Source: an uncultured Candidatus Saccharibacteria bacterium (GTDB lineage: Bacteria > Patescibacteriota > Minisyncoccia > Minisyncoccales > JAHCRE01). From it: 51,061 nucleotides of DNA. A program made the translations under genes and the position numbers. The notes beneath the pieces were generated by a model. That model had not been told where the DNA came from, ran no database searches, and was given only the letters and a program-made list of their open reading frames with translations. Position 1 is the first letter of the stretch, and the number at the start of each line of letters is the position of its first letter. The stretch lies in NCBI GenBank assembly GCA_964354555.1, contig CAYHAF010000001.1, positions 1-51,061 on the forward strand. The letters are read 5' to 3'. Positions 1-45,950 of this stretch are shown here, one piece after another.

Positions 1-929
1 TTTTTGTTTTTTCTTCTTCCAACTGATAAATCTTGGCGTATAAAATCTTCATTGCTTTCTCCCTGTTCTGGGCTTGCGATCTTTCACTTTGGCAGGAAAC
101 ATTAATACCGGTTGGCAGATGAATCATTCTTACTGCTGATTCAGTTTTATTGACATATTGACCACCAGGCCCTGAAGACTTAAATGTTTCTAATTTTAAA
201 TCACTCTGATTGATTTTAATTTCCGAATTTTCTCGCCCGCCTGAATTTTCTCCAGAAATTTTGGCGGGTAAAGGAATATCAGGCAAAACTTCAACTAAGG
301 CGAAAGAAGTGTGGCGTAGTTTTTTGGTTGAAAAAGGCGAAATCCTGACTAATCTATGGACCCCCGTTTCTTTTTTCAAAAAACCATAAGCCAAGTTTCC
401 CTTGATTTCTAAAGTTACTGATTTCGTTCCTATTCTACCTTCCGGTCCGCCGCCTTCGCCAAAAGACTGAGAAAGTATCTGGGTTTTGTATCCTTTTCTT
501 GTGCAGTATCTCTCATACATTCTAAGCAGCATTGTTACCCAGTCCTGGGCATCTTGTCCACCAGCTCCAGAAAAAATCTCTAAAATTGCGTTTCCCTTAT
601 CGTATTTGCCTGAAAGAAAAATTTCCAATTCTTCTGACCTAATCTTTTTTTCCAATCCCTGAATTCCTTTCTCAAATTTATCGTCCTGAACCGTTTTTAA
701 TTCCCCTACTTCTTTCTCTAATTCATCAATTTTTAATACTTTTTCCTCCAGATAAGCTATTTCTTGATTAATCTTAGCTGCCTCTTGAGGATCGTGCCAA
801 AAATCAGGATTTTGGGCCCTTTTTTGCAATTCTTCAAGTCTTTTTTTCTTATTATCTAAGTCAAAGACAGTCCATCAACTGATGGAACCTTTTTTCTAAT
901 TCTATTAATTTTTGAGCTGTTTCAGACAT
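1..929 (-). CDS. prfB: peptide chain release factor 2, 3' end runs off window, programmed +1 frameshift
   Basis: Manual translation from ATG at 929: [22 protein letters not shown], then in-frame TGA (861-863) inside CTTTGAC (860-866). The +1 frame continues [12 protein letters not shown]...RISPFS...[24 protein letters not shown] (SPF and GGQ motifs). Absent from the ORF track because of the frameshift and truncation. Confidence 0.9.
236..268. repeat. 33-nt palindromic insert (PE-F arms CCCGCC/GGCGGG), in-frame inside prfB
   Basis: CCCGCCTGAATTTTCTCCAGAAATTTTGGCGGG is exactly 11 codons ([11 protein letters not shown] on the minus strand), in the linker preceding the GGQ domain. The arms resemble those flanking tRNA-Met at 14226-14333. 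Confidence 0.7.
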
Positions 930-1145: not shown

Positions 1146-1226
1146 ATACAGGGCAAGCCAACAACTTAATATTGAGCTGACGGTCGGATTTGAACCGACA
1201 ACTTTACCCCCACACCTTAATTTCTG

Positions 1227-1383
1227 AGCCAGCGGTCGGAATCGAACCGACGGCCTACCCCGCCCTCTAAGCAAGCCGATGGGCAGAATCGAACTGCCAT
1301 CGATGGTTTACGAAACCATTGCTTTACCATTAAGCTACATCGGCATAAAGGGCGGGGTTGCTCTACCACTGAGCTATCCCAGC
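1227..1383 (-). pseudogene. middle split tRNA-like shell; anticodon arm replaced by the PE-B hairpin that contains tRNA-Thr
   Basis: GCTGGGA-TA-GCTC-AGTGGTA-GAGC-A then ACCCCGCCCT (1349-1358 on plus) ... AGGGCGGGGT (1257-1266), then AGGCC-GTCGG-TTCGATT-CCGAC-CGCTGGC-T. No anticodon loop. Acceptor only 5/7 pairable. Confidence 0.5.
1274..1344 (-). tRNA. tRNA-Thr(CGT)
   Basis: GCCGATG TA GCTT AATGGTA AAGC A ATGGT TTCGTAA ACCAT CGAT GGCAG TTCGATT CTGCC CATCGGC T. All four stems pair. 71 nt, no encoded CCA. Confidence 0.9.
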
Positions 1384-1532
1384 ATAAAAGGTGTGGGGGC
1401 TACGTTCCACTTCGCGAAACAGTTGCTCTACTATTGAACTACATCGGCACTATACGAAATTTATTTTATAAGTTTCGTCGTGCCCGATCAAAAATTTAAG
1501 TAATTAAATTTTTGATATAGGGCAAAAAATTA

Positions 1533-1603
1533 AGCGGGATACCAGGATCGAACTGGCGCCCCTTCCTTGGGAAGGAAGTGTACTACCACTATACTAATCC
1601 CGC
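1533..1603 (-). tRNA. tRNA-Gly(CCC)
   Basis: GCGGGAT TA GTAT AGTGGTA GTAC A CTTCC TTCCCAA GGAAG GGGC GCCAG TTCGATC CTGGT ATCCCGC T. Canonical cloverleaf, 71 nt. Confidence 0.9.
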
Positions 1604-2711: not shown

Positions 2712-4517
2712 TTAACTCCTGAAGATTTCCAAAAACACCTTTTGGGGAATTCTGATTTCTCCCTTTTCCTTAAGCTCTCGCTTCCCTTTTTTCTGCTGTT
2801 CGAGTAATTTCCTTTTCCTTGTATAATCTCCTCCATAAAGAGGGGCAATAACATCCCTACCTTTGGCCCGCATGGTTTCTCTGGCGATAATTTTTCCGCC
2901 AATTATAGCCTGAATAGGAACCGAGAATAACTGGGAAGGCAAAATCTCTTTTAGTTTAGTCACTATTCTTTTCCCCTCTTCAAAAGCTTTGAAACTTGGG
3001 ACGATTCTGGAAAAAGCTTCTTCCTTTTTCCCGGCAATAAGAATTTCTAACTTTATCAAATCCCCTTTTTTGTATCCCAAAAGCTCATAGTTCATTGAAG
3101 CAAATCCTTTTGTTTGACCCTTCAATTTGTCAAAAAATCCAGCAATTATTTCACGCAGAGGAACCTCATAAATTAAAAATACTTTTTCCGGATTAAGATA
3201 CCTCGTTTCTACTTGCTTTCCTTCCAGACTTTCCAAAATTTCCAAGGTTTGGCCTAAAAAAATAGTTGGAGTTAAAACTTCCAATCTTGCCCAGGGCTCC
3301 TGGACTTCTTTTATTTTAAATGATTCCGGCCAATCAGCCGGATTGAAAATTAAAGTTTCTTTGTCTTTTAAATCAATAATATTATAAATTACGCTGGGAG
3401 TAGAAATCACTAATTCCAGATCGAATTCATTTTTTAATCTTTCGGTTACTATTTCAATATGCAAGTTGCCCAAAAACCCGCAACGAAATCCTCTGCCCAA
3501 ACCCTCCCTGATTTCTGGTTCAAAAGTAAAAGACGGGTCATTTAATTTTAATTTAGAAAGAGAATCTTTTAAGTTTTCAAACTCGCCTAAATCTTGAGGG
3601 TATAAACTGGCAAAAACAACCGGTTTTGGCTCCTGGTAGCCCGGCAAGGCTTCATTTTCAATTAATTTTGGATTTTGAATTTTGAGCTTTGAACTTACTA
3701 TCGTATCCCCTACCTTAACTTTTCCAGGTTCTTTAATCCCAGTGGCAATATAACCAATCTCCCCTGCTTTTAATTCTTGAGCTGGGGTAAATTTTGGATT
3801 AAAGAAACCAACTTCTTTTATTTCGCTTTCTATCTGTGAATGAATCAAATAAATTTTTTCTCCAGAACGAATTTTTCCGGAAAAAACTCTTACGAAAACA
3901 ATAATTCCTTTAAAAGAATCAAACTGGGAATCAAAAATCAGGGCTTTGAAAGAGCTTTCTGTCTCTATTTTGGGCGGAGGTGTTTTTTCAATTATCTCTT
4001 CTAAAAGTTCTTTTGTATTTAAGCCTTCTTTAGCCGAAACCGCCCGAATATTTTCTTCTGGAACCCCCAAAAGCTTGCTTAACTCTTTTTTTGTTTCTTC
4101 GGTTCTGGCTTCTGGAACGTCAATTTTATTAACAACAGGCAAAATTATTAAGTTTTGCTTTTTAGCCAATTCTAAATTATAAATGGTTTGAGCCTGAATG
4201 CCTTTTGTAGCATCCACTAATAAAACCGCTCCTTCAACAGCTGCTAAAGATCTTGAAACTTCGTAAGAAAAATCTACATGACCCGGAGTATCAATCAGAT
4301 TTAAGATATAAGATTTAAGATTGAAGTTATGGGTCATGCGGACCGGATGCATCTTAATGGTTATTCCCTTTCCCCTTTCTAACTCCATCACATTAAGAAA
4401 CTGAGGCCTCATCTCTTTCTCTTCAATAGTTTTAGTTAATTCCAAAAACCTGTCAGCCAGAGTTGATTTTCCATGATTAATGTGGGCGATAATAGTAAAA
4501 TTTCTAATGTTCTCCAT
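2712..4517 (-). CDS. lepA: elongation factor 4 (LepA)
   Basis: 601 aa. AHINHGKST, DTPGHVDF, NKID G-motifs and LepA C-terminal region. Confidence 0.95.
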   Translation of the reverse strand: MENIRNFTIIAHINHGKSTLADRFLELTKTIEEKEMRPQFLNVMELERGKGITIKMHPVRMTHNFNLKSYILNLIDTPGHVDFSYEVSRSLAAVEGAVLLVDATKGIQAQTIYNLELAKKQNLIILPVVNKIDVPEARTEETKKELSKLLGVPEENIRAVSAKEGLNTKELLEEIIEKTPPPKIETESSFKALIFDSQFDSFKGIIVFVRVFSGKIRSGEKIYLIHSQIESEIKEVGFFNPKFTPAQELKAGEIGYIATGIKEPGKVKVGDTIVSSKLKIQNPKLIENEALPGYQEPKPVVFASLYPQDLGEFENLKDSLSKLKLNDPSFTFEPEIREGLGRGFRCGFLGNLHIEIVTERLKNEFDLELVISTPSVIYNIIDLKDKETLIFNPADWPESFKIKEVQEPWARLEVLTPTIFLGQTLEILESLEGKQVETRYLNPEKVFLIYEVPLREIIAGFFDKLKGQTKGFASMNYELLGYKKGDLIKLEILIAGKKEEAFSRIVPSFKAFEEGKRIVTKLKEILPSQLFSVPIQAIIGGKIIARETMRAKGRDVIAPLYGGDYTRKRKLLEQQKKGKRELKEKGEIRIPQKVFLEIFRS

Positions 4518-6252: not shown

Positions 6253-6681
6253 GCTGTCCTAGTAAGTTGAGTGATTGCCCTAAACTTTCTGAAAAGAAAG
6301 TCGGGAGGAAAGTCCGAACTCTCCCCCGCCCTCTAAGCCTTATGTTTCTCCATCCATGTAAATCAACACAGGGCATAGAGGGCGGGGTAAAAAGATAGTG
6401 GCTAACAGCCATCCACCGTAAGGTGCGAGGTGCGAACAGAGACGCTGAGAGACGAAAGTCTCGAAGCGCCCAGTCGAATGACTGGGCGAGCCGAGCACAT
6501 AACTTGTTATGTGCTCGGGTGAAACGGCTAAATCCTTATTGAGTGCAAGAACAAACCAAAAGTTATCCGAATATGGAAAACTTTTGTGAAAAGTAGTTCG
6601 CTTGAGTCAAACTGTAAGGTTTGACCTAGAGTAATAATCACTTTAAAACAGAATTCGGCTTACGGACTTACTAAGGACACC
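6253..6681 (+). ncRNA. rnpB: RNase P RNA (bacterial type A-like), carrying an inserted palindrome
   Basis: GGGAGGAAAGTCCGAAC (P4 5' strand, 6303-6319) and ACAGAATTCGGCTTAC (P4 3' strand, about 6649-6664). P1 pairing TGTCCTAGTAAGT (6255-6267) with ACTTACTAAGGACA (6666-6679). GNRA-type loops GTAA and GAAA. Confidence 0.85.
6324..6387 (+). repeat. PE-B hairpin inserted in the RNase P RNA gene
   Basis: Perfect 12-bp arms CCCCGCCCTCTA/TAGAGGGCGGGG. Left arm is 15/15 and right arm 15/16 identical to the arms flanking tRNA-Thr (1258-1272, 1342-1357). Confidence 0.8.
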
Positions 6682-6716
6682 GAGCACATAAATTTTTATG
6701 TGCTCGGTTTGTTTTC
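6680..6716 (+). terminator. hairpin plus T-tract after rnpB; the stem duplicates an internal rnpB hairpin
   Basis: CCGAGCACATAA atttt TTATGTGCTCGG then TTTGTTTTC. The same 12-bp stem occurs at 6491-6518 inside rnpB. Confidence 0.5.
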
Positions 6717-6734: not shown

Positions 6735-7184
6735 TTAAATCAGTTTTTGAACCTTGTCTTTGCTGTCCAGGGCTTGGTTTGCCAGCCTATCGGCTTCTTG
6801 ATTTTTTTCCCGCGAGATTAATTTAAATTTTATCTTTTTAAAATCAATTTTTAAATTCCAAGTTTCCAAAAATAAAGGTTGTATTTTTTCATCTAAAATT
6901 TTATATTCTCCGTTTAATTGATTAATTAAAAGCTCGGAGTCTGATTTTAATTCGATTTCTGTATTTTTAGCCAACTTGTTTCCGAAAAGAGCTTTAAACT
7001 TTTTTAAGGCTAAAATAACCCCTCTATACTCGGCTTCATTATTGGTAATGTTTTCACCCAAATATTCGGAATATTCCTTAAAAATCTGGCCTTTTTCATT
7101 GCAAAAAACAAAGCCCACTGCCGAAGGACCAGGATTTCCACGGGAGCCGCCATCAACAAATATTATAACTTTCTTCACCCCCAC
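6735..7184 (-). CDS. rnhA: ribonuclease HI
   Basis: 149 aa, DGGSRGNPGPSAVG motif. The GTG start lies inside the PE-A arm (7178-7187). Confidence 0.85.
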   Translation of the reverse strand: MGVKKVIIFVDGGSRGNPGPSAVGFVFCNEKGQIFKEYSEYLGENITNNEAEYRGVILALKKFKALFGNKLAKNTEIELKSDSELLINQLNGEYKILDEKIQPLFLETWNLKIDFKKIKFKLISREKNQEADRLANQALDSKDKVQKLI

Positions 7185-7318
7185 ACCAAACGAGCTTATG
7201 TTTTAAGACTTTTGAGAAGTCTTAAAACTTTTACTCGTACTTTAAATTTATTATTTTATCCTTTATTTTCCCCACACGAAATTTTTTCTATGAACTAAAG
7301 CTCGTTATGGTGTGGGGG
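7178..7318. repeat. PE-A clamp element filling the rnhA / DHH-gene spacer
   Basis: CCCCCACACCAAACGAGCTT (7178-7197) versus AAGCTCGTTATGGTGTGGGGG (7298-7318). Inner hairpin TTTTAAGACTT/AAGTCTTAAAA (7201-7227). Confidence 0.8.
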
Positions 7319-14073: not shown

Positions 14074-14098
14074 ACAAATGCCGGCGGTCGGATTTTCA

Positions 14099-14153
14099 CC
14101 CTGTTAAATAATTTCTCTTTTGGGAAATTCCCGCTTTGCGGGATTTAACAGGG
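14099..14153. repeat. PE-E palindromic element in the T loop of the outer shell
   Basis: CCCTGTTAAAT ... CCCGCTTTGCGGG ATTTAACAGGG. The same arms and inner hairpin occur at 45018-45081. Confidence 0.75.
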
Positions 14154-14199
14154 CGGGCCGACGACCTAGCGCTTACTCGCCCCCACACCATAATTATTG

Positions 14200-14385
14200 T
14201 GCCAGAGGTGGGGGTCGAACCTTCACCCGCCTAAATTTCTAATTATGGCTGCGAGAGGATTTGAACCTCTGACCCAACGCTTATGAAACGTTCGCTCTAC
14301 CACTGAGCTACGCAGCCAAAAATTTTTGGCGGGCAAGCGACCTCTCGCTTATGAAACGAATGCTCTACCACTGAGCTACTCTGGC
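14200..14385 (-). pseudogene. middle split tRNA(CAT)-like shell, interrupted at the T stem by PE-F arms enclosing tRNA-Met
   Basis: GCCAGAG TA GCTC AGTGGTA GAGC A TTCGT TTCATAA GCGAG AGGTC, then CCCGCC (14328-14333 on plus) ... GGCGGG (14226-14231), then GAAGG TTCGACC CCCAC CTCTGGC A. Acceptor 7/7, residual T stem only 3/5. Confidence 0.6.
14246..14317 (-). tRNA. tRNA-Met(CAT), elongator or Ile2-type, innermost gene of the nest
   Basis: GGCTGCG TA GCTC AGTGGTA GAGC G AACGT TTCATAA GCGTT GGGTC AGAGG TTCAAAT CCTCT CGCAGCC A. Canonical, 72 nt. Confidence 0.9.
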
Positions 14386-14529
14386 CGAATTTGGTGTGGG
14401 GGTGAAAAACGAATGCTCTTCCGGGGTGATTTTTAACGCCTCGCAGGGACGCTCAACTAAATCACCCGTGTAAGACAAGCAGTTGTCTTACACCCACTGA
14501 GCTACGCCGGCCCAGACCAAACTCTCTTG

Positions 14530-39815: not shown

Positions 39816-41573
39816 TTATTCTAAAATCGCACGGATTCTTCTTACTCCAGCACCCGATGATTCTTCTTTTATGATTTTAAATTTACCTAACTCTGAAGTT
39901 CTGTTAGTATGGGGTCCGGCACAGATTTCTCTTGAAAAATTACCTACCGAATAAATGCTGACTTTTCCAGGGTATTTTTCCTTGAAAAAGGCTAAACTGC
40001 CTGATTTTAACGCCTCCTCGTAATTCATTTCTTCTTTTTTAACTTCTAAATCTTCTTTAATTTTTTGATTTACCAAATCTTCCACTTTTTTTATTTCTTC
40101 TGGAGTCATCTTTCGGGGATGAGAAAAATCAAATCTTAATCTTTGAACCGTAATATCAGAACCCATCTGCTTCACATGAGACCCTAAAACATCTCTCAAT
40201 ACTTGGTGTAATAAATGGGTGGCGGTGTGAAGTTTTGCCGACTGATAAGTCGCCTCTTTTCCCACTCCACCAAACTTCTTTTCTGCACCAGCTCGGGAAA
40301 TTTTTCGGTGCTGCTCAAATGCTTTCTTAAAACCTTCGGTATCCAAACTTAAGCCTTTTTCTTTTGCTAATTCCTGAGTTAATTCAAAAGGGAAACCAAG
40401 AGTATCAAAAAGATGAAAGCAATCCTCTCCTGAAATATTCCCTATTTTTGAGATTTTTTCAAATTGCGTCAATCCCCTTTTTAAAGTTTTCTCAAACTTT
40501 TCTTCTTCATTTTGAATTGCAACCAGAATATCATTTTCTCTTGTCTTTACTTCTAAATATATCTCTTTATATATTTCAATTACTTTTTGTGCTAAAGGAA
40601 TTAAAAAATTCTTCGGTAAATTAAGTAATTTTCCGTACCTAATTGCTCTTCTTAAAACTCTTCTTAAAATATAGCCTCTTTCAACATTTGAAGGAAAAAT
40701 TCCTTCTGAAATTAAAAAAACTGCACTTCTTATATGGTCGGCAATAATTCTATATGATTTTAAATCTAAAGTATAGGGTTTATTTGCGTTTTTTTCTATC
40801 TCTTTAATAATCGGAAAAAATAAATCTGTTTCAAAAACTGATTGTTTTTCTTGAACTACAGCCATTAATCTTTCCAAACCCATCCCGGTATCAACACCTT
40901 TTTGTTTTAATGGCGTTAATTTACCATTTTGATCCTGATAATATTCGTTAAAAACTAAGTTCCAAACTTCAAAACCTTTAAGATAAATTTCACTGGTCGG
41001 ACCGCATGGACCTTCTAAACCCGTTGGCCCCCAGAAATTATCTTCTCTCCCCATTTTTTTTATCTTTGATTGGGAAATACCTAAATTCAGCCATATTTTT
41101 TCTGACTCTCTATCTTCAGGAATAACTTGCCCTGAGTCTGTCGAAGGGTCACCGGCGAAAACTGAAACGTAGTCAATTTTTAAGCCTAATTCTTTAACTA
41201 TGAACTCATACGCCGATTCAATTGTTTCTTTTTTAGAATAACCTGCCCCGTAGGCCCCGCCCTTTTCTGAAAAAGAGCGGGGTCCTTCGGGGTCTCCGAA
41301 GCTGAAATTCCCTAACATCTCTACAAAAGTTAAATGGCTTATATCCCCTACTGTTTCTATATCAGAAGTCCTAAAACATTTCTGGCAGGAAATGACTCTT
41401 TTTCCATAAGGAGATTCTTTGCCTAAAAAATACTCTTTAAATTGCTGCATTCCGGCTGTAGTAAATAAAACACTTGGATCAGTTGGCAAAAGCGAAGAAG
41501 AAGGTACAATCTTATGCCCTCGTTTCTCAAAAAAATCCAAAAATTTTTGCCGAATTTCATCAGAATCAATCAT
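39816..41573 (-). CDS. alaS: alanyl-tRNA synthetase, short form (585 aa), with two palindrome-derived in-frame inserts
   Basis: GNFSFGD, editing-domain HTATHLLH and CAGPH motifs. Much shorter than the roughly 870-aa canonical enzyme. Confidence 0.9.
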   Translation of the reverse strand: MIDSDEIRQKFLDFFEKRGHKIVPSSSLLPTDPSVLFTTAGMQQFKEYFLGKESPYGKRVISCQKCFRTSDIETVGDISHLTFVEMLGNFSFGDPEGPRSFSEKGGAYGAGYSKKETIESAYEFIVKELGLKIDYVSVFAGDPSTDSGQVIPEDRESEKIWLNLGISQSKIKKMGREDNFWGPTGLEGPCGPTSEIYLKGFEVWNLVFNEYYQDQNGKLTPLKQKGVDTGMGLERLMAVVQEKQSVFETDLFFPIIKEIEKNANKPYTLDLKSYRIIADHIRSAVFLISEGIFPSNVERGYILRRVLRRAIRYGKLLNLPKNFLIPLAQKVIEIYKEIYLEVKTRENDILVAIQNEEEKFEKTLKRGLTQFEKISKIGNISGEDCFHLFDTLGFPFELTQELAKEKGLSLDTEGFKKAFEQHRKISRAGAEKKFGGVGKEATYQSAKLHTATHLLHQVLRDVLGSHVKQMGSDITVQRLRFDFSHPRKMTPEEIKKVEDLVNQKIKEDLEVKKEEMNYEEALKSGSLAFFKEKYPGKVSIYSVGNFSREICAGPHTNRTSELGKFKIIKEESSGAGVRRIRAILE

Positions 41574-42237: not shown

Positions 42238-43191
42238 CCAATAGCTTGGAAACGATCTGATACAATATATCTGATACAATATACATGTATCAATAAATCA
42301 TTTCTAAATATGCCATACACAATTAATCCTCAAATGCCTAAACTACGGGCAAGAGCAGTTAATATGGTCAGAGCGGGCAAATCAATCAGCGAAGTGGCCA
42401 GATATTTTGGCTATTCAAAGGGCGCGGTCAGCAAATGGAATCAGAAAGTTCCGCCAGGAGGAGTGCGTGAAATTCCAACTCGGTCTTCTCGGCCCCATCA
42501 TCACCCACGGGAACTATCAGAAGAAATCGTTAAAGCTATCGTTGCTTGTAGAAAGAAATACAAACGTTGCAGCGATGTCATCCACCAACATTTAATTAAG
42601 GATGGAATCAGAGTCTGTTTAAACAGCGTAAAACGAAAATTGGACGATGCCGGATTGATCAAGAAACGCAGTCCCTGGAAAAGATTGCATCTGCCAATTG
42701 AGCGTCCTCTGCCTTTAAAACCTGGGGATTTGGTCATTGTTGATACCATTCATCTAATGGTGAATGGAAAGAAAAGAATCTATGTCTATACTTTAATCGA
42801 CGTCTATTCGCGCTGGTGCTTTGCTTGGGCGACAGGAAGGATTAATACAAGATTAAGCATTGGATTTTTGAAGAAAGCCCGAGCCTTAGCGCCGTTTAGG
42901 TTTAATTGCATCCAATCCGATTATGGCAGTGAATTTTCCCAACATTTCAGCGAACGAATAAAGATATTGCATCGGCATTCCAGGGTTAGAAAACCCAATG
43001 ACAATTCCTATCTTGAAAGATTCAACCGGACTTTGCAGGAAGAATGCTTAAGAAATTTGCCGGTTGATGTTAAAATATTCAATAAAGCATTACCAGAATA
43101 TTTAAACTATTACAACCAAGAAAGATTACATATGGGAATCAATTTTCAAACACCAAATCAATTACTAAAATGTTTCCAAGCTATTGGATAG
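42238..43191 (+). mobile_element. IS481-family insertion sequence
   Basis: Perfect 16-bp inverted repeats CCAATAGCTTGGAAAC (42238-42253) / GTTTCCAAGCTATTGG (43172-43187). Flanking ATAGC / ATAGA may be a target duplication. 14-nt tandem duplication at 42255-42282. Confidence 0.85.
42310..43191 (+). CDS. DDE (rve) transposase, IS481 family
   Basis: 293 aa. N-terminal HTH, and a DDE candidate triad in VIVDTIH, IQSDYGSEF and LERFNRTLQEE. Confidence 0.85.
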   Translation: MPYTINPQMPKLRARAVNMVRAGKSISEVARYFGYSKGAVSKWNQKVPPGGVREIPTRSSRPHHHPRELSEEIVKAIVACRKKYKRCSDVIHQHLIKDGIRVCLNSVKRKLDDAGLIKKRSPWKRLHLPIERPLPLKPGDLVIVDTIHLMVNGKKRIYVYTLIDVYSRWCFAWATGRINTRLSIGFLKKARALAPFRFNCIQSDYGSEFSQHFSERIKILHRHSRVRKPNDNSYLERFNRTLQEECLRNLPVDVKIFNKALPEYLNYYNQERLHMGINFQTPNQLLKCFQAIG

Positions 43192-44008: not shown

Positions 44009-45106
44009 CTATTGTTTTCTTAAATATTCGGCGGCTTTTTCCGGCTCAATGGTTGAAATCTCCATTCGAGTTCCGATTTCAAATCCTGCCCAAACAGAAG
44101 TTTTTGGTAAAATTGTCCAATGCCAATGATAATAATCGTATTTTCTGCCATCGCATGGAGCAGTATGCAAATAAAAATTGTAAGCAGGATCGTTAAGGGC
44201 TTTAAAAATTTTACCTAAAGCTGCTTTAAAAGCTTGAGCCAGCTGCCATTTTTCTTTTTCGGTAATTTTTTCGAAATAAGGTAGGTGTTTTTTGGGTGAA
44301 ATTATCAGTTCAAAAGCTGATTTTGATGCAAAGGGACATAGGACTAAAAAATCTTTATTTTCAAAAACAATTCTTTTCTTTATCTTCTTTTCCCATTTAT
44401 CCATCTCACAATAAATGCATTTTTTTTCTCTTTTAAAATATCTCTTAGAATTGGAAAGGCCTCTGGTCAAATCAACATCAACCAAAGGAGTGGTGATGAT
44501 TTGGGAATGGGGATGAAATATGGAAGCCCCGGATTCTAAACCATGGTTATGAAATATTGAAATATGATTAACAAATGGTTTTACCATCAAATCTAAATAT
44601 CTCTGATGATAAATATCAATTACTTCCTTAACTTTTTCTAAACTAAGCAGAGCAAGTGATTTCTTATGATTCCTGGTAACAACTATCTCGTGAAAACCTG
44701 CGGCATTTATCGTTTCATAAAGATTGCCTTCTATTTTCTTGTCTAGCTTAGAAGATGGCAAAAAAGCGGGAAATTTATTCGTAATCGAAATAGTCGTCCA
44801 TTTTTTTTGTTCCTTCCCCCTGACCTTTTTCCCTCGAGAAAAAACTAATGTCGCATCTTTTATAATGTCTTTTTTGCAAAAAGGGCAGGTTTCTTTAGAA
44901 AATTCTTGGCTTACTTTTTTTTCTCTTCTAAAGGTTTCGGGTCTCCTCGCCCTGCCTGTAGCAATAACAACCCAGTCTTTTGAGATTAAATCAAGTCTAA
45001 GCTCTGAAGGAAACCTTACCCCGTTAAATACCCCGCCCTTCTGCGAAGGGCTGGGTCCCGCTTTGCGGGATTTAACAGGGTGAATTTTTTTAGGCTTTTT
45101 AGTCAT
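44009..45106 (-). CDS. galactose-1-phosphate uridylyltransferase-like (HIT superfamily)
   Basis: 365 aa. CPFC zinc motif and HPHSQI active-site motif. The first 30 or so codons are encoded by PE-E. Confidence 0.75.
   Translation of the reverse strand: MTKKPKKIHPVKSRKAGPSPSQKGGVFNGVRFPSELRLDLISKDWVVIATGRARRPETFRREKKVSQEFSKETCPFCKKDIIKDATLVFSRGKKVRGKEQKKWTTISITNKFPAFLPSSKLDKKIEGNLYETINAAGFHEIVVTRNHKKSLALLSLEKVKEVIDIYHQRYLDLMVKPFVNHISIFHNHGLESGASIFHPHSQIITTPLVDVDLTRGLSNSKRYFKREKKCIYCEMDKWEKKIKKRIVFENKDFLVLCPFASKSAFELIISPKKHLPYFEKITEKEKWQLAQAFKAALGKIFKALNDPAYNFYLHTAPCDGRKYDYYHWHWTILPKTSVWAGFEIGTRMEISTIEPEKAAEYLRKQ
45018..45081. repeat. PE-E element within the 5' coding end of the galT-like gene
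   Basis: ACCCCGTTAAAT / ATTTAACAGGGT arms. Inner hairpins ACCCCGCCCTTC..GAAGGGCTGGGT (PE-B-like, 45030-45056) and CCCGCTTTGCGGG. Confidence 0.75.
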
Positions 45107-45950
45107 ATTTATGCGTTATGAAATTCCATCTTATTTTAACTAAATCAAGAGCCATTTTAACCATGCTTTTAAATTTTACCTTGCTTTCCAAGTCATTTTT
45201 CCAAAAAATAGGAATTTCTTTTATCTTATATTTTAATTTTTTGGCAATTAATAAGACTTCGGTATCAAAAGAAAAACGCAAAATTTTACATTTCGGAAAA
45301 ATAGTTTCGGTTGCTTTTTTCGTAAAGCATTTAAAGCCGCATTGGCTATCCTGAATTTCCCATAAACCAACGATAATTTTTCTGACTAATTTAAAAACTT
45401 CCCCTGTAAATCTCCTTTGCCAAGGCTGGGGCGGATCTAAAACTGCTCCTTTTAAATCTCGAGAACCAATAACAATGTCAAAACCCTCCTTAAAATAAGG
45501 CCACATTTTTTCAATCTGTTCAAGAGGAGTTGAATTATCAGCATCAGTAAAAATGCGGTAATCACCTTTTGCCTCCAACATTCCTTGGTGGACTCCGAAC
45601 CCCTTGCCTCTTTTTTTAGGAAATTCAAGCAGTCTTAAGTTTTTAATGGTTCGATTCGGCTCACCATTAACCCTGAGCTCTGTCGAAGGGTTAATTTCTG
45701 TCATCAAATTTCTGACAACTTCGCAAGTTTTATCGGTGGAGCCATCAGAAACAACAAGAATTTCAGACTCATAATTCTGTTTTCTTAAGTATTTGTCTAT
45801 TTCTTTTAAAGTCCCAGTCAATCTTTTTTCTTCGTTATAAGCAGGGACAATAACGGAAAGATAAACCCCCACACCATAAGGAGCACTAGCGCCTTCGGCG
45901 CTAAAAGATGAATAATGTGCTCCTTTGGTGTGGGGGTAAATTTCTGACAT
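45099..45950 (-). CDS. family 2 glycosyltransferase (start uncertain: 45950 or GTG at 45872)
   Basis: 283 aa. SVIVPAYNEE and TDADN motifs. Codons 1-26 lie in a PE-A palindrome. Confidence 0.8.
   Translation of the reverse strand: MSEIYPHTKGAHYSSFSAEGASAPYGVGVYLSVIVPAYNEEKRLTGTLKEIDKYLRKQNYESEILVVSDGSTDKTCEVVRNLMTEINPSTELRVNGEPNRTIKNLRLLEFPKKRGKGFGVHQGMLEAKGDYRIFTDADNSTPLEQIEKMWPYFKEGFDIVIGSRDLKGAVLDPPQPWQRRFTGEVFKLVRKIIVGLWEIQDSQCGFKCFTKKATETIFPKCKILRFSFDTEVLLIAKKLKYKIKEIPIFWKNDLESKVKFKSMVKMALDLVKIRWNFITHKYD
45866..45936. repeat. PE-A clamp element at the GT2 gene start
   Basis: CCCCCACACCATAAGGAGCAC / GTGCTCCTTTGGTGTGGGGG with inner hairpin TAGCGCC/GGCGCTA. Confidence 0.8.

Follow-up and report, generated by a model that had tools for sequence, protein, structure and literature searches.

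Phage and genomic-island elements integrate at the 3' ends of tRNA genes and bring a copy of the tRNA segment that they displace. Other elements are known to invade, neighbor or divide genes for structural RNAs. Free-standing homing endonucleases, the agents of 'intronless homing', include SegB of phage T4, encoded in a tRNA gene cluster (PMC2330249), and mobE (PMC2790892). Short palindromes are dispersed in bacterial genomes as the Rickettsia palindromic elements and other MITEs (miniature inverted-repeat transposable elements; reviewed in PMC10969869, PMC2229807). Disrupted tRNA genes of archaea can be split, tri-split, permuted or interrupted by several introns, some of which transpose (PMC10714607, PMC3293823, PMC4090602). 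In the candidate phyla radiation (CPR) of bacteria, rRNA genes hold insertions, many of which are group I or II introns and some of which encode homing endonucleases (PMC11270868). Here we describe a tRNA-Thr(CGT) gene enclosed by two or three older tRNA-Thr genes, each broken into halves, in a 51,061-nt stretch of DNA from an uncultured Candidatus Saccharibacteria bacterium (positions 1-51,061 of contig CAYHAF010000001.1, assembly GCA_964354555.1; this whole stretch is called the window). This nest, locus 1, is probably a scar, left where the gene at one tRNA-Thr(CGT) locus was replaced in successive rounds.

Locus 1 is read on the minus strand (1448→1173) as an outer 5' part, a middle 5' half, the tRNA-Thr(CGT), a middle 3' half and an outer 3' part (Table 1). 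The layers are separated by the arms of two palindromes, termed PE-A and PE-B, in the order CCCCCACACC, ACCCCGCCCT, then AGGGCGGGGT, GGTGTGGGGG. Both 10-nt palindromes are perfect, and they form continuous helices of 10-13 bp without 3-nt bulges. The PE-B 5' arm, together with the TTAT at 1345-1348, fits a longer PE-B consensus, ACCCCGCCCTCTAWGC. The minimum free energy fold of the RNA 1165-1455(-) recovers the entire concentric nest (-120.1 kcal/mol, z = -6.35). An earlier reading of the locus, made from the sequence alone, had given the same order of parts, with an intact tRNA-Thr(CGT) at the center and a middle shell that lacks an anticodon arm and has PE-B in its place. Direct reading confirms this arrangement exactly, and ARAGORN and Rfam confirm the central gene, which scores 73.4 bits against RF00005 (threshold 29). 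The features of a functional tRNA are found at 1274-1344 only; the shells receive no ARAGORN call and no Rfam match at the gathering or E<=5 thresholds. A permissive Rfam scan of the nest finds no other RNA family, just chance microRNA-type matches on the hairpins. The arms are enriched in the window: GGTGTGGGGG with at most one mismatch occurs 10 times against 0.65 expected (10 was reached in 0 of 100 shuffles), and AGGGCGGGGT 12 times against 1.18 expected. Inverted pairs account for most arm matches, including all those of GGTGTGGGGG.

The history of the nest can be followed in the interval from DivIC through the tRNA genes to the release-factor gene, which was compared across eight relatives (genomes and contigs are numbered with the prefix L). 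Three of these (L003, L004, and L005; LepA 89-90% identical to that of the window) carry tRNA-Gly(CCC), 12 nt and an uninterrupted tRNA-Thr(CGT), GCCGATG...CGTCGGCT, between the DivIC and release-factor genes, an arrangement that reads as the empty site. The closest relative, L007 (LepA 95%), has the same junctions as the window, ACGTAG-CCCCCACACC-TTTTAT-GC and GAAATTAA-GGTGTGGGGG-TAAAGTT, and an intact tRNA-Thr, GCCGGGA...TCCCGGCT, between the PE-A arms where the window has the middle shell. In L008 and L009 (LepA 89%), which are two independent assemblies, the resident 5' half is followed by ACCCCGCCCT, a decayed tRNA 5' remnant, a leader of ~55 nt (TTGACG...TATACT), a 151-aa HNH open reading frame (ORF), a tRNA-Thr of the window-inner type, TACCAA-AGGGCGGGGT and the resident 3' half. 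Homologues of the PE-B 3' junction are present in L008 (TACCAA AGGGCGGGGT AAAGTC GTCGG) and L013. In L006 (LepA 92%), a tRNA-Thr of a different type has a 76%-identical HNH ORF directly upstream; after the tRNA come CA-GAAATTAA-GATGTGGAGG, with a decayed PE-A right arm, and the resident 3' half. In L001 the resident gene is divided by one more tRNA-Thr cassette and has additional hairpins inserted in its D and T loops. One homologous site is therefore polymorphic for presence and absence: empty in L003-L005, with PE-A in L007, with PE-B and the HNH gene in L008, and with both palindromes and no HNH gene in the window. The PE-B::tRNA-Thr cassette sits at one and the same position (26|44) in three or more different tRNA-Thr backgrounds.

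The shells and the intact genes differ in what has been kept. The 5' part of the outer shell is 40/49 identical to the uninterrupted resident tRNA-Thr of L003 and 36/49 to the inner tRNA (73%, where the sequence-only reading had given about 76%); its 3' part is 28/31 identical to the L003 gene. These matches uphold the earlier view of the outer shell as a split tRNA-Thr gene and place it closer to the relatives' uninterrupted gene than to the tRNA that it encloses. Its acceptor 3' strand pairs with 1448-1442 at 6/7 positions. The anticodon loop has changed from TTCGTAA to TTCGCGA, and the anticodon stem retains 2/5 pairs by direct reading. When the outer halves are joined, ARAGORN reports an 82-nt 'tRNA-Arg(tcg)' that is degenerate and whose anticodon stem is broken; for the joined middle halves, in which no anticodon arm is present, it reports no tRNA. 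The 5' half of the middle shell is 23/25 identical to the intact tRNA-Thr that holds this position in L007, and its 3' half is 27/30 identical to an L011-type tRNA-Thr and 19/30 to the L007 type; the acceptor strands pair at 5/7 positions. With best matches to two different tRNA-Thr types, the middle shell is a chimera, as is compatible with co-conversion of flanks and likewise with other recombination. The 12 intact tRNA-Thr(CGT) genes from these loci retain all four stems, with compensatory changes on both sides in 15/23 pairs. The innermost tRNA thus appears to be the sole functional-looking gene of the nest. The empty, one-layer and endonuclease-bearing stages in the relatives show that tRNA-Thr cassettes, each with its replacement tRNA, were inserted serially into the copy that had worked before, so that the shells are decaying relics.

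Could the shells still be functional, as split or intron-containing tRNAs whose inserts are removed at the RNA level, or as two-piece tRNAs? The outer acceptor pairing, the near-intact outer copies of L076 and L101, in which just the T loop has an insert, and a superficial likeness to the split tRNAs of Nanoarchaeum and Caldivirga, joined via GC-rich complementary leaders (PMC10714607), speak for this possibility. We consider it highly improbable. The middle shell has neither an anticodon arm nor halves from one gene; in the outer shell the anticodon stem is disrupted and the loop has mutated, and neither joined product is a threonine tRNA by ARAGORN. The helices are continuous and contain no bulge-helix-bulge, and close relatives have an ordinary gene. 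The host, too, is bacterial. The window has minus-strand genes for LepA, MurJ, RNase H, a RecJ-like DHH protein and a DivIC-like protein, as well as a bacterial class-A RNase P RNA. The nearest relatives of its LepA are metagenome proteins (82-95% identity), and the named matches, below ~73%, are from Parcubacteria or Patescibacteria. The LepA matches, MurJ and the bacterial RNase P RNA indicate a CPR bacterium, not an archaeon.

The nest could also be an artefact of assembly, with repeats collapsed or chimerically joined. The source is evidently metagenome-assembled, and many contigs with the HNH family are ~1 kb long, hinting at assembly breaks. Misassembly is nevertheless scarcely credible, because the repeats are short (10-16 nt, far under read length) and identical junctions recur in independent samples and assemblers (L007; L008 and L009; L001 and L002). 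Similar nests are also present in unrelated samples (L093, L104).

The palindromes are not specific to the cassettes. They are members of a MITE-like family of hairpins that is spread genome-wide and has target duplications of 4 bp, and the 51 kb of the window contain five PE-A pairs and about six PE-B-like pairs, that is, terminal inverted repeats in dispersed copies. Removing the PE-A at the start of the RNase H gene restores ATGAAGAAAGTT (MKKV). The same site is empty in L003, L001, and L011, and is occupied by PE-A in L008 and by a different ACCCC...GGGGT element in L010. The L010 element (ACCCCGTTAGAAG..., ~3166-3306) uses the identical TGAA after the start codon, and the window RNase H gene apparently starts now at a GTG within the PE-A right arm. 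Hairpin elements also lie in frame inside protein-coding ORFs (45030-45056, 45866-45936, 41254-41283). One in-frame PE-B is nested in a palindrome, CCCTGTTAAAT...ATTTAACGGGG, at the N-terminus of ORF 44009-45106, and this palindrome is also the T-loop insert of a second tRNA nest, locus 2, described below. The RNase P RNA gene (Rfam RNaseP_bact_a, 89 bits, E 2.9e-26, under the gathering score of 100) has a PE-B hairpin at a site where relatives carry short unrelated hairpins. From our own reading of the bacterial class-A fold, we take this site to be the P3 hairpin position. Two other hairpins of this RNA, 6491-6518 and 6679-6708, share CCGAGCACATAA with the relatives' hairpin at the PE-B position, as if hairpin modules had been swapped.

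A metagenome scan for exact arms (CCCCCACACC-N88-118-GGTGTGGGGG) finds PE-A in at least 120 contigs; the counts that follow are among the matches listed. Identical 4-nt flanks (TTTA, TAAA, TGAA, CAAG and others) border 49 of the 124 unique PE-A elements. In 74/124 the stem extends at least 4 bp past the conserved ends, by 63 different sequences. An IS481/IS3-like transposase in the window was rejected as the mobilizer of the family, as its inverted repeats (CCAATAGCTTGGAAA) are unrelated to the hairpin ends. Integron-like or Xer-like insertion at the hairpin center was set aside, since the arms are not duplicated and target duplications of 4 bp are indicative of transposition. In L032 (~661-700), tRNA-Thr is directly followed by a minimal hairpin of PE-A-like type, ACCCCCACACC AAAATTT GGTGTAGGGGT, and a T-run, which have the look of a terminator; L013 also has a minimal PE-A-like hairpin and T-run after tRNA-Thr, downstream of 2017. 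Such a hairpin may have given rise to the PE-A ends, or it may put them to a second use.

The mobility of the hairpins bears on the proposal that the nested helices are an evolved processing device, with leader-trailer pairing like that of the rRNA stems cut by RNase III. Closing helices of 13 bp are predicted around each layer. The spacers that adjoin the inner tRNA are 4-6 nt long and contain no promoter of its own, so that it must be excised from a longer transcript. The L032 hairpin resembles a terminator, and complementary stem extension by so many different sequences suggests that the hairpin itself is maintained. The same palindromes, with their target-site duplications, are however also inserted in RNase P RNA and in genes for proteins, their presence varies among relatives, and some relatives do with a plain tRNA-Thr and no helix. 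The proposal also leaves the tRNA halves unaccounted for. We therefore think it improbable that the helices arose for processing, which would be a by-product at most.

Some members of the hairpin family carry a tRNA gene. This is so for 9/125 PE-A elements, with Ala-CGC, Arg-GCG (twice), Arg-CCG, Thr-CGT, Met-CAT, Gly-CCC (twice) and Pro-GGG as cargo. All nine lie between same-strand 5' and 3' tRNA pieces, of the same isotype where this can be judged, and the PE-A elements inside tRNA genes are those that hold a tRNA. Deletion of the element restores a junction-spanning ARAGORN tRNA in 5/9 loaded elements, compared with 0/116 empty ones. Two of the five restored tRNAs have the same anticodon, and the other three are interrupted in the anticodon loop. 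There are further nests. L093 has an independent triple tRNA-Thr nest, and the window itself has locus 2, of tRNA-Met type. The outer gene of locus 2 (GCCGGCG...CGCCGGC) has inserts in the D loop, the anticodon loop (the PE-A arms) and the T loop; in the middle gene (GCCAGAG...CTCTGGC) the CAT anticodon arm is intact and the T arm is split by CCCGCC/GGCGGG arms. In the metagenome contig L104 (159-267), the single contig on which the synteny of locus 2 is based, the middle tRNA-Met is still intact and the D-loop insert is absent. With the loaded elements and these other nests, the nest of locus 1 is therefore a single case of a phenomenon that is general among these bacteria.

Related arrangements occur at glycine genes and in dead shells. 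In L008 (9035-9310), PE-A::tRNA-Gly(CCC) occupies the anticodon loop of a resident gene that also has a T-loop palindrome; the duplication, CAAG, is clean. In L011 (9408-9590) a different palindrome, ACCCCGTATAAATTTT, brings a new tRNA-Gly inside the resident anticodon. A two-hairpin element of ~75 nt, GTGTAAGACAACTGCTTGTCTTACAC GGGTGATTT...AAATCACCC, follows AGTGG in the D loop of dead tRNA shells (window 14402-14510 in locus 2, Met-type; L001 8787-8858 and L008 9417-9490, Thr). Its presence in shells of different isotypes suggests loop-specific targeting.

The loaded elements permit a simpler account, transposition with selection and no homing, in which a PE captures a tRNA and survives just in a gene for the same tRNA, the HNH gene being a later, unrelated passenger. 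PE-A does act as a MITE with 4-bp target duplications, and loaded PE-A elements with the clean CAAG duplication are found in tRNA-Gly (L008, L142). No empty PE-A (0/116) lies inside a tRNA gene. Most of the invaded tRNAs are C34 or G34 isoacceptors, which, under the general rules of wobble, are perhaps dispensable for a while. Random transposition should nevertheless place most loaded copies at neutral, non-tRNA sites. No loaded element is at a coding or intergenic site, the kind occupied by the 116 empty ones; all nine, as well as those of the window and its relatives, are inside tRNA pieces of the same isotype where judgeable. The recurrence of PE-B::tRNA-Thr at 26|44 is likewise difficult to reconcile with this account, which we regard as unlikely, although it merits more weight than those discussed above.

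The second component of the cassettes is the 151-aa ORF, an HNH endonuclease (PHROG 1271, E 3.1e-17; Pfam HNH_3 weak). At the homologous locus an endonuclease ORF is present in or beside the mobile segment in L006 and L008/L009, and not in the window. The family comprises 1,873 clusters in the protein database and has no copy in IMG/VR viral contigs. It is found at 47 genome loci (contigs L013-L058) in Patescibacteria, filamentous cyanobacteria, Anaerolineae, Ktedonobacterales and others, and in ~40 of the 47 a tRNA-Thr lies within ~210 nt downstream. In most Patescibacteria loci the tRNA-Thr abuts or overlaps the end of the ORF; in cyanobacteria it is ~90-210 nt downstream. Patescibacteria have the anticodon CGT in this tRNA, and cyanobacteria and Chloroflexi mostly TGT. 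In L008 the stop codon of the ORF, TAG, is formed by tRNA positions 8-10, and likewise, by reading, in L016; the end of the ORF overlaps the tRNA start in many other CPR loci. In L008, L013, and L015 the tRNA behind the HNH gene is of the window-inner type. Two Armatimonas loci have tRNA-Trp upstream instead.

A tRNA 5' remnant directly upstream of the conserved leader (AATCTACAACCACTTCTAATTTTGACGCTGGTCG...TATACT) is present in 4/26 CPR loci by a strict score, and in more by eye. The remnants end at tRNA positions 26-41, and in two of the four strict cases in the anticodon loop. This layout would fit insertion of the leader, the HNH gene and a tRNA 5' copy around the anticodon loop. Other endonucleases are placed similarly. 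A GIY-YIG gene lies directly after tRNA-Gln(CTG) in L006 (12223-12504), and a LAGLIDADG-like ORF directly before tRNA-Gln(CTG) in L011 (12832-13470). Counting HNH, this lineage therefore has three families of endonuclease associated with tRNA genes.

The sequence-only reading had offered three interpretations of the nest. Serial insertion of cassettes with replacement tRNAs has held up; processing helices and split tRNAs have not. Two of the checks that it had proposed were informative: joining the halves after removal of the inserts left just the degenerate outer tRNA and nothing for the middle shell, and synteny revealed the plain tRNA-Thr of three relatives and the intermediate stages of others. 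Two features lie beyond it, namely that the palindromes are an independent, genome-wide mobile family and that the cassette carries an HNH homing endonuclease in relatives.

The replacements at locus 1 can be envisaged as follows. The outer shell would be the original resident tRNA-Thr gene. A first cassette, a PE-A hairpin (CCCCCACACC...GGTGTGGGGG) tipped with a tRNA-Thr, would have entered the variable loop of the resident gene and taken over its function. A second, a tRNA-Thr at the tip of a PE-B hairpin (ACCCCGCCCT...AGGGCGGGGT), would later have replaced the anticodon arm of the first replacement. In relatives the PE-B cassette retains a promoter-bearing leader and the HNH gene, a part that the window appears to have lost. 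The inner cassette of the window equals that of L008 minus the remnant, leader and HNH gene, and a deletion is plausible, through recombination of the 5' tRNA remnant with the duplicated tRNA. The nest would be transcribed as one RNA from upstream, the shells acting as 5' leader and 3' trailer of the inner tRNA, which RNase P and 3'-end processing would free. The HNH enzyme would cut uninterrupted tRNA-Thr genes around the anticodon loop, and nested alleles would then spread by homologous repair, with the conserved tRNA halves as homology arms. This would amount to homing without an intron, the replacement tRNA standing in for splicing.

In its general form, which we put forward tentatively and consider rather less probable than its alternatives taken together, the hairpin-bounded cassettes are a tRNA-specific gene-replacement drive. 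An endonuclease, of the HNH family for threonine, would cut the intact tRNA gene in a loop. Repair from the invaded allele would need just the universally conserved tRNA halves as homology, so that species boundaries could be crossed. The cassette would bring a cleavage-resistant replacement tRNA instead of a self-splicing intron. Successive drives of new specificity would overwrite each other, leaving concentric shells and speeding the turnover of tRNA alleles across Patescibacteria.

Several observations weigh against successive cassette replacement as just described. In L007 the PE-B left arm is outside PE-A, which blurs the order of events. Because the arrangements of L007, L008, and the window are mosaic, as the chimeric middle shell also indicates, and gene conversion or rearrangement may have intervened, only the broad order of events is claimed. 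The PE-A copy of locus 1 has no clean target duplication (GTAG vs TAAA), and PE-B substitutes for 17 nt instead of being plainly inserted. Within the 51 kb of the window there is no transposase with ends that match the PE family, its single one having unrelated ends, and the census of PE-A covers exact arms among listed matches. By tblastn the window has no HNH gene or remnant, so that the role of the enzyme in this nest is drawn from relatives. In both L008 and L006 the HNH unit has the appearance of having invaded, secondarily, a tRNA already at the tip of a PE hairpin, and HNH may add a drive rather than create PE::tRNA nests. The promoter match upstream (1491-1463) is weak, with 2 found vs 1.4 expected. 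Capture of a tRNA at the PE tip and the constant siting in the same isotype are left unexplained.

Table 1. Positions of locus 1, of the PE hairpin family and of neighboring features in the window
Feature	Position	Strand	Remarks
Outer shell, 5' part	1448-1400	-	GCCGATGTAGTTCAATAGTAGAGCAACTGTTTCGCGAAGTGGAACGTAG; acceptor, D arm, decayed anticodon arm, part of variable loop
PE-A 5' arm CCCCCACACC	1399-1390	-	followed by spacer TTTTAT (1384-1389)
Middle shell, 5' half	1383-1359	-	GCTGGGATAGCTCAGTGGTAGAGCA; acceptor strand, D arm, A26
PE-B 5' arm ACCCCGCCCT	1358-1349	-	perfect 10-nt inverted repeat with 1257-1266
Innermost intact tRNA-Thr(CGT)	1344-1274	-	ARAGORN; Rfam RF00005, 73.4 bits, E 2.9e-14
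PE-B 3' arm AGGGCGGGGT	1266-1257	-	preceded by spacer TGCTTAG (1267-1273)
Middle shell, 3' half	1256-1225	-	AGGCC GTCGGTTCGATTCCGAC CGCTGGC TCA; variable loop, T arm, acceptor 3' strand, TCA
PE-A 3' arm GGTGTGGGGG	1216-1207	-	preceded by spacer GAAATTAA (1217-1224)
Outer shell, 3' part	1206-1173	-	TAAAGTT GTCGGTTCAAATCCGAC CGTCAGC TCA; rest of variable loop, T arm, acceptor 3' strand, TCA
Further partial 3' relic	1165-1052	-	T-arm-like, cut by PE-B-like palindrome (arms 1130-1145, 1082-1097); acceptor-like end
Promoter-like TTGATC-17-TAAAAT	1463-1491	-	directly upstream of outer shell; consensus match only
Intact tRNA-Gly(CCC)	1533-1603	-	neighbor of the nest; gene itself nested in L008 and L011
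Locus 2, tRNA-Met-type nest	14090-14520	-	PE-A arms 14180/14393; intact tRNA-Met 14245-14318; middle 5' part 14332-14385
PE-A pairs beyond locus 1	7178/7309, 14180/14393, 28283/28368, 45866/45927		
PE-B-like pairs beyond inner locus 1 pair	6323/6379, 14673/14831, 41254/41274, 45030/45047, 1082/1130		
Cargo-free PE-A	7178-7318		after ATG of RNase H gene; TGAA on both sides
Cargo-free PE-A	45866-45936		in frame (71 nt + 4-nt duplication TTTA), N-terminus of glycosyltransferase-like ORF
PE-B hairpin in RNase P RNA gene	6323-6388		64-nt hairpin; gene 6259-6678 (+)
IS481/IS3-like transposase	42310-43191	+	rve and HTH domains; flanked by inverted repeats CCAATAGCTTGGAAA; among few plus-strand genes

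Homologues of the partial relic at 1165-1052, beyond the outer shell, are the 3' half with interrupted T loop in L001 and the corresponding stretch of L007 and of L008. The release-factor gene (860-929, minus strand) starts with the ATG at 929; after 21 codons comes an in-frame CTT TGA C, the classic programmed +1 frameshift site of prfB; the site is conserved in L001, L003, L006, L007, L008, and L011.

The earlier reading knew of no account of such nesting in bacteria, and none was found here. In the literature searched, which includes few subscription journals, so that absence is no proof, no bacterial tRNA-in-tRNA nesting and no HNH-tRNA-Thr module is described. The words tRNA, palindrome and HNH are absent from the main text of the study of CPR rRNA insertions (PMC11270868). 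If successive replacement is correct, selfish DNA can invade a short RNA gene without a self-splicing intron by supplying a replacement copy. This would account for the odd tRNA-like debris and fragmented assemblies around CPR tRNA genes, and annotators would have to treat partial tRNA matches at such sites as scars, not split genes. The HNH family lies upstream of tRNA-Thr in several phyla and, if its targeting is proven, would be a possible natural sequence-specific nuclease. Intermediate stages are kept in living relatives, and the process can therefore be reconstructed and tested.

Judged by genomic features, the system does not resemble split or intron-containing tRNAs, has most properties of a MITE, and appears to have those of a homing cassette. 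As with SegB and mobE, a small endonuclease gene lies beside or within tRNA genes, varies in presence among close relatives and has no self-splicing intron. Spread is presumed to follow the same course: cutting of the endonuclease-free allele, repair from the filled allele and co-conversion of flanks. Unlike SegB and mobE, the family here is chromosomal in bacteria, and its ORF ends inside its companion tRNA. The cassette, moreover, interrupts the tRNA gene that it enters and brings a full replacement, repeats of which leave concentric pseudogene shells. With the Rickettsia elements and MITEs the hairpins share short palindromes dispersed across the genome. They differ in being a new sequence family (ACCCC...GGGGT ends) in Patescibacteria, with conserved 10-nt ends followed by variable but complementary stem extensions. 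A subset has a complete tRNA gene at the tip and is found inside tRNA genes alone, of the same isotype where judgeable.

The likeness to integrative elements that target tRNA genes lies in the restoration of the disrupted tRNA by the sequence brought in, in partial duplicates as scars and in serial use of a site. Unlike such elements, the nested tRNA loci have no integrase seen next to them and no att-type direct repeats. The whole tRNA is supplied, not a 3' segment, and insertion is into D, anticodon, variable and T loops. Scars lie on both sides of the new gene, so that the result is nested rather than tandem. The CPR rRNA insertions (PMC11270868) occur in the same radiation, also invade genes for structural RNAs and include some homing endonucleases, but there the target is rRNA and many of the inserts are introns removed from the RNA. 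Finally, the disrupted tRNAs of archaea show canonical and non-canonical breaks, GC-rich complementary sequences at the break points and signs of insert mobility, all of which are found here. Archaeal pieces are spliced via a bulge-helix-bulge; at the present loci there is no such motif, the interrupted copies are decaying and a separate, complete tRNA probably does the work. The nests may thus provide a bacterial counterpart to the debate on the disruption of archaeal tRNA genes by mobile elements.

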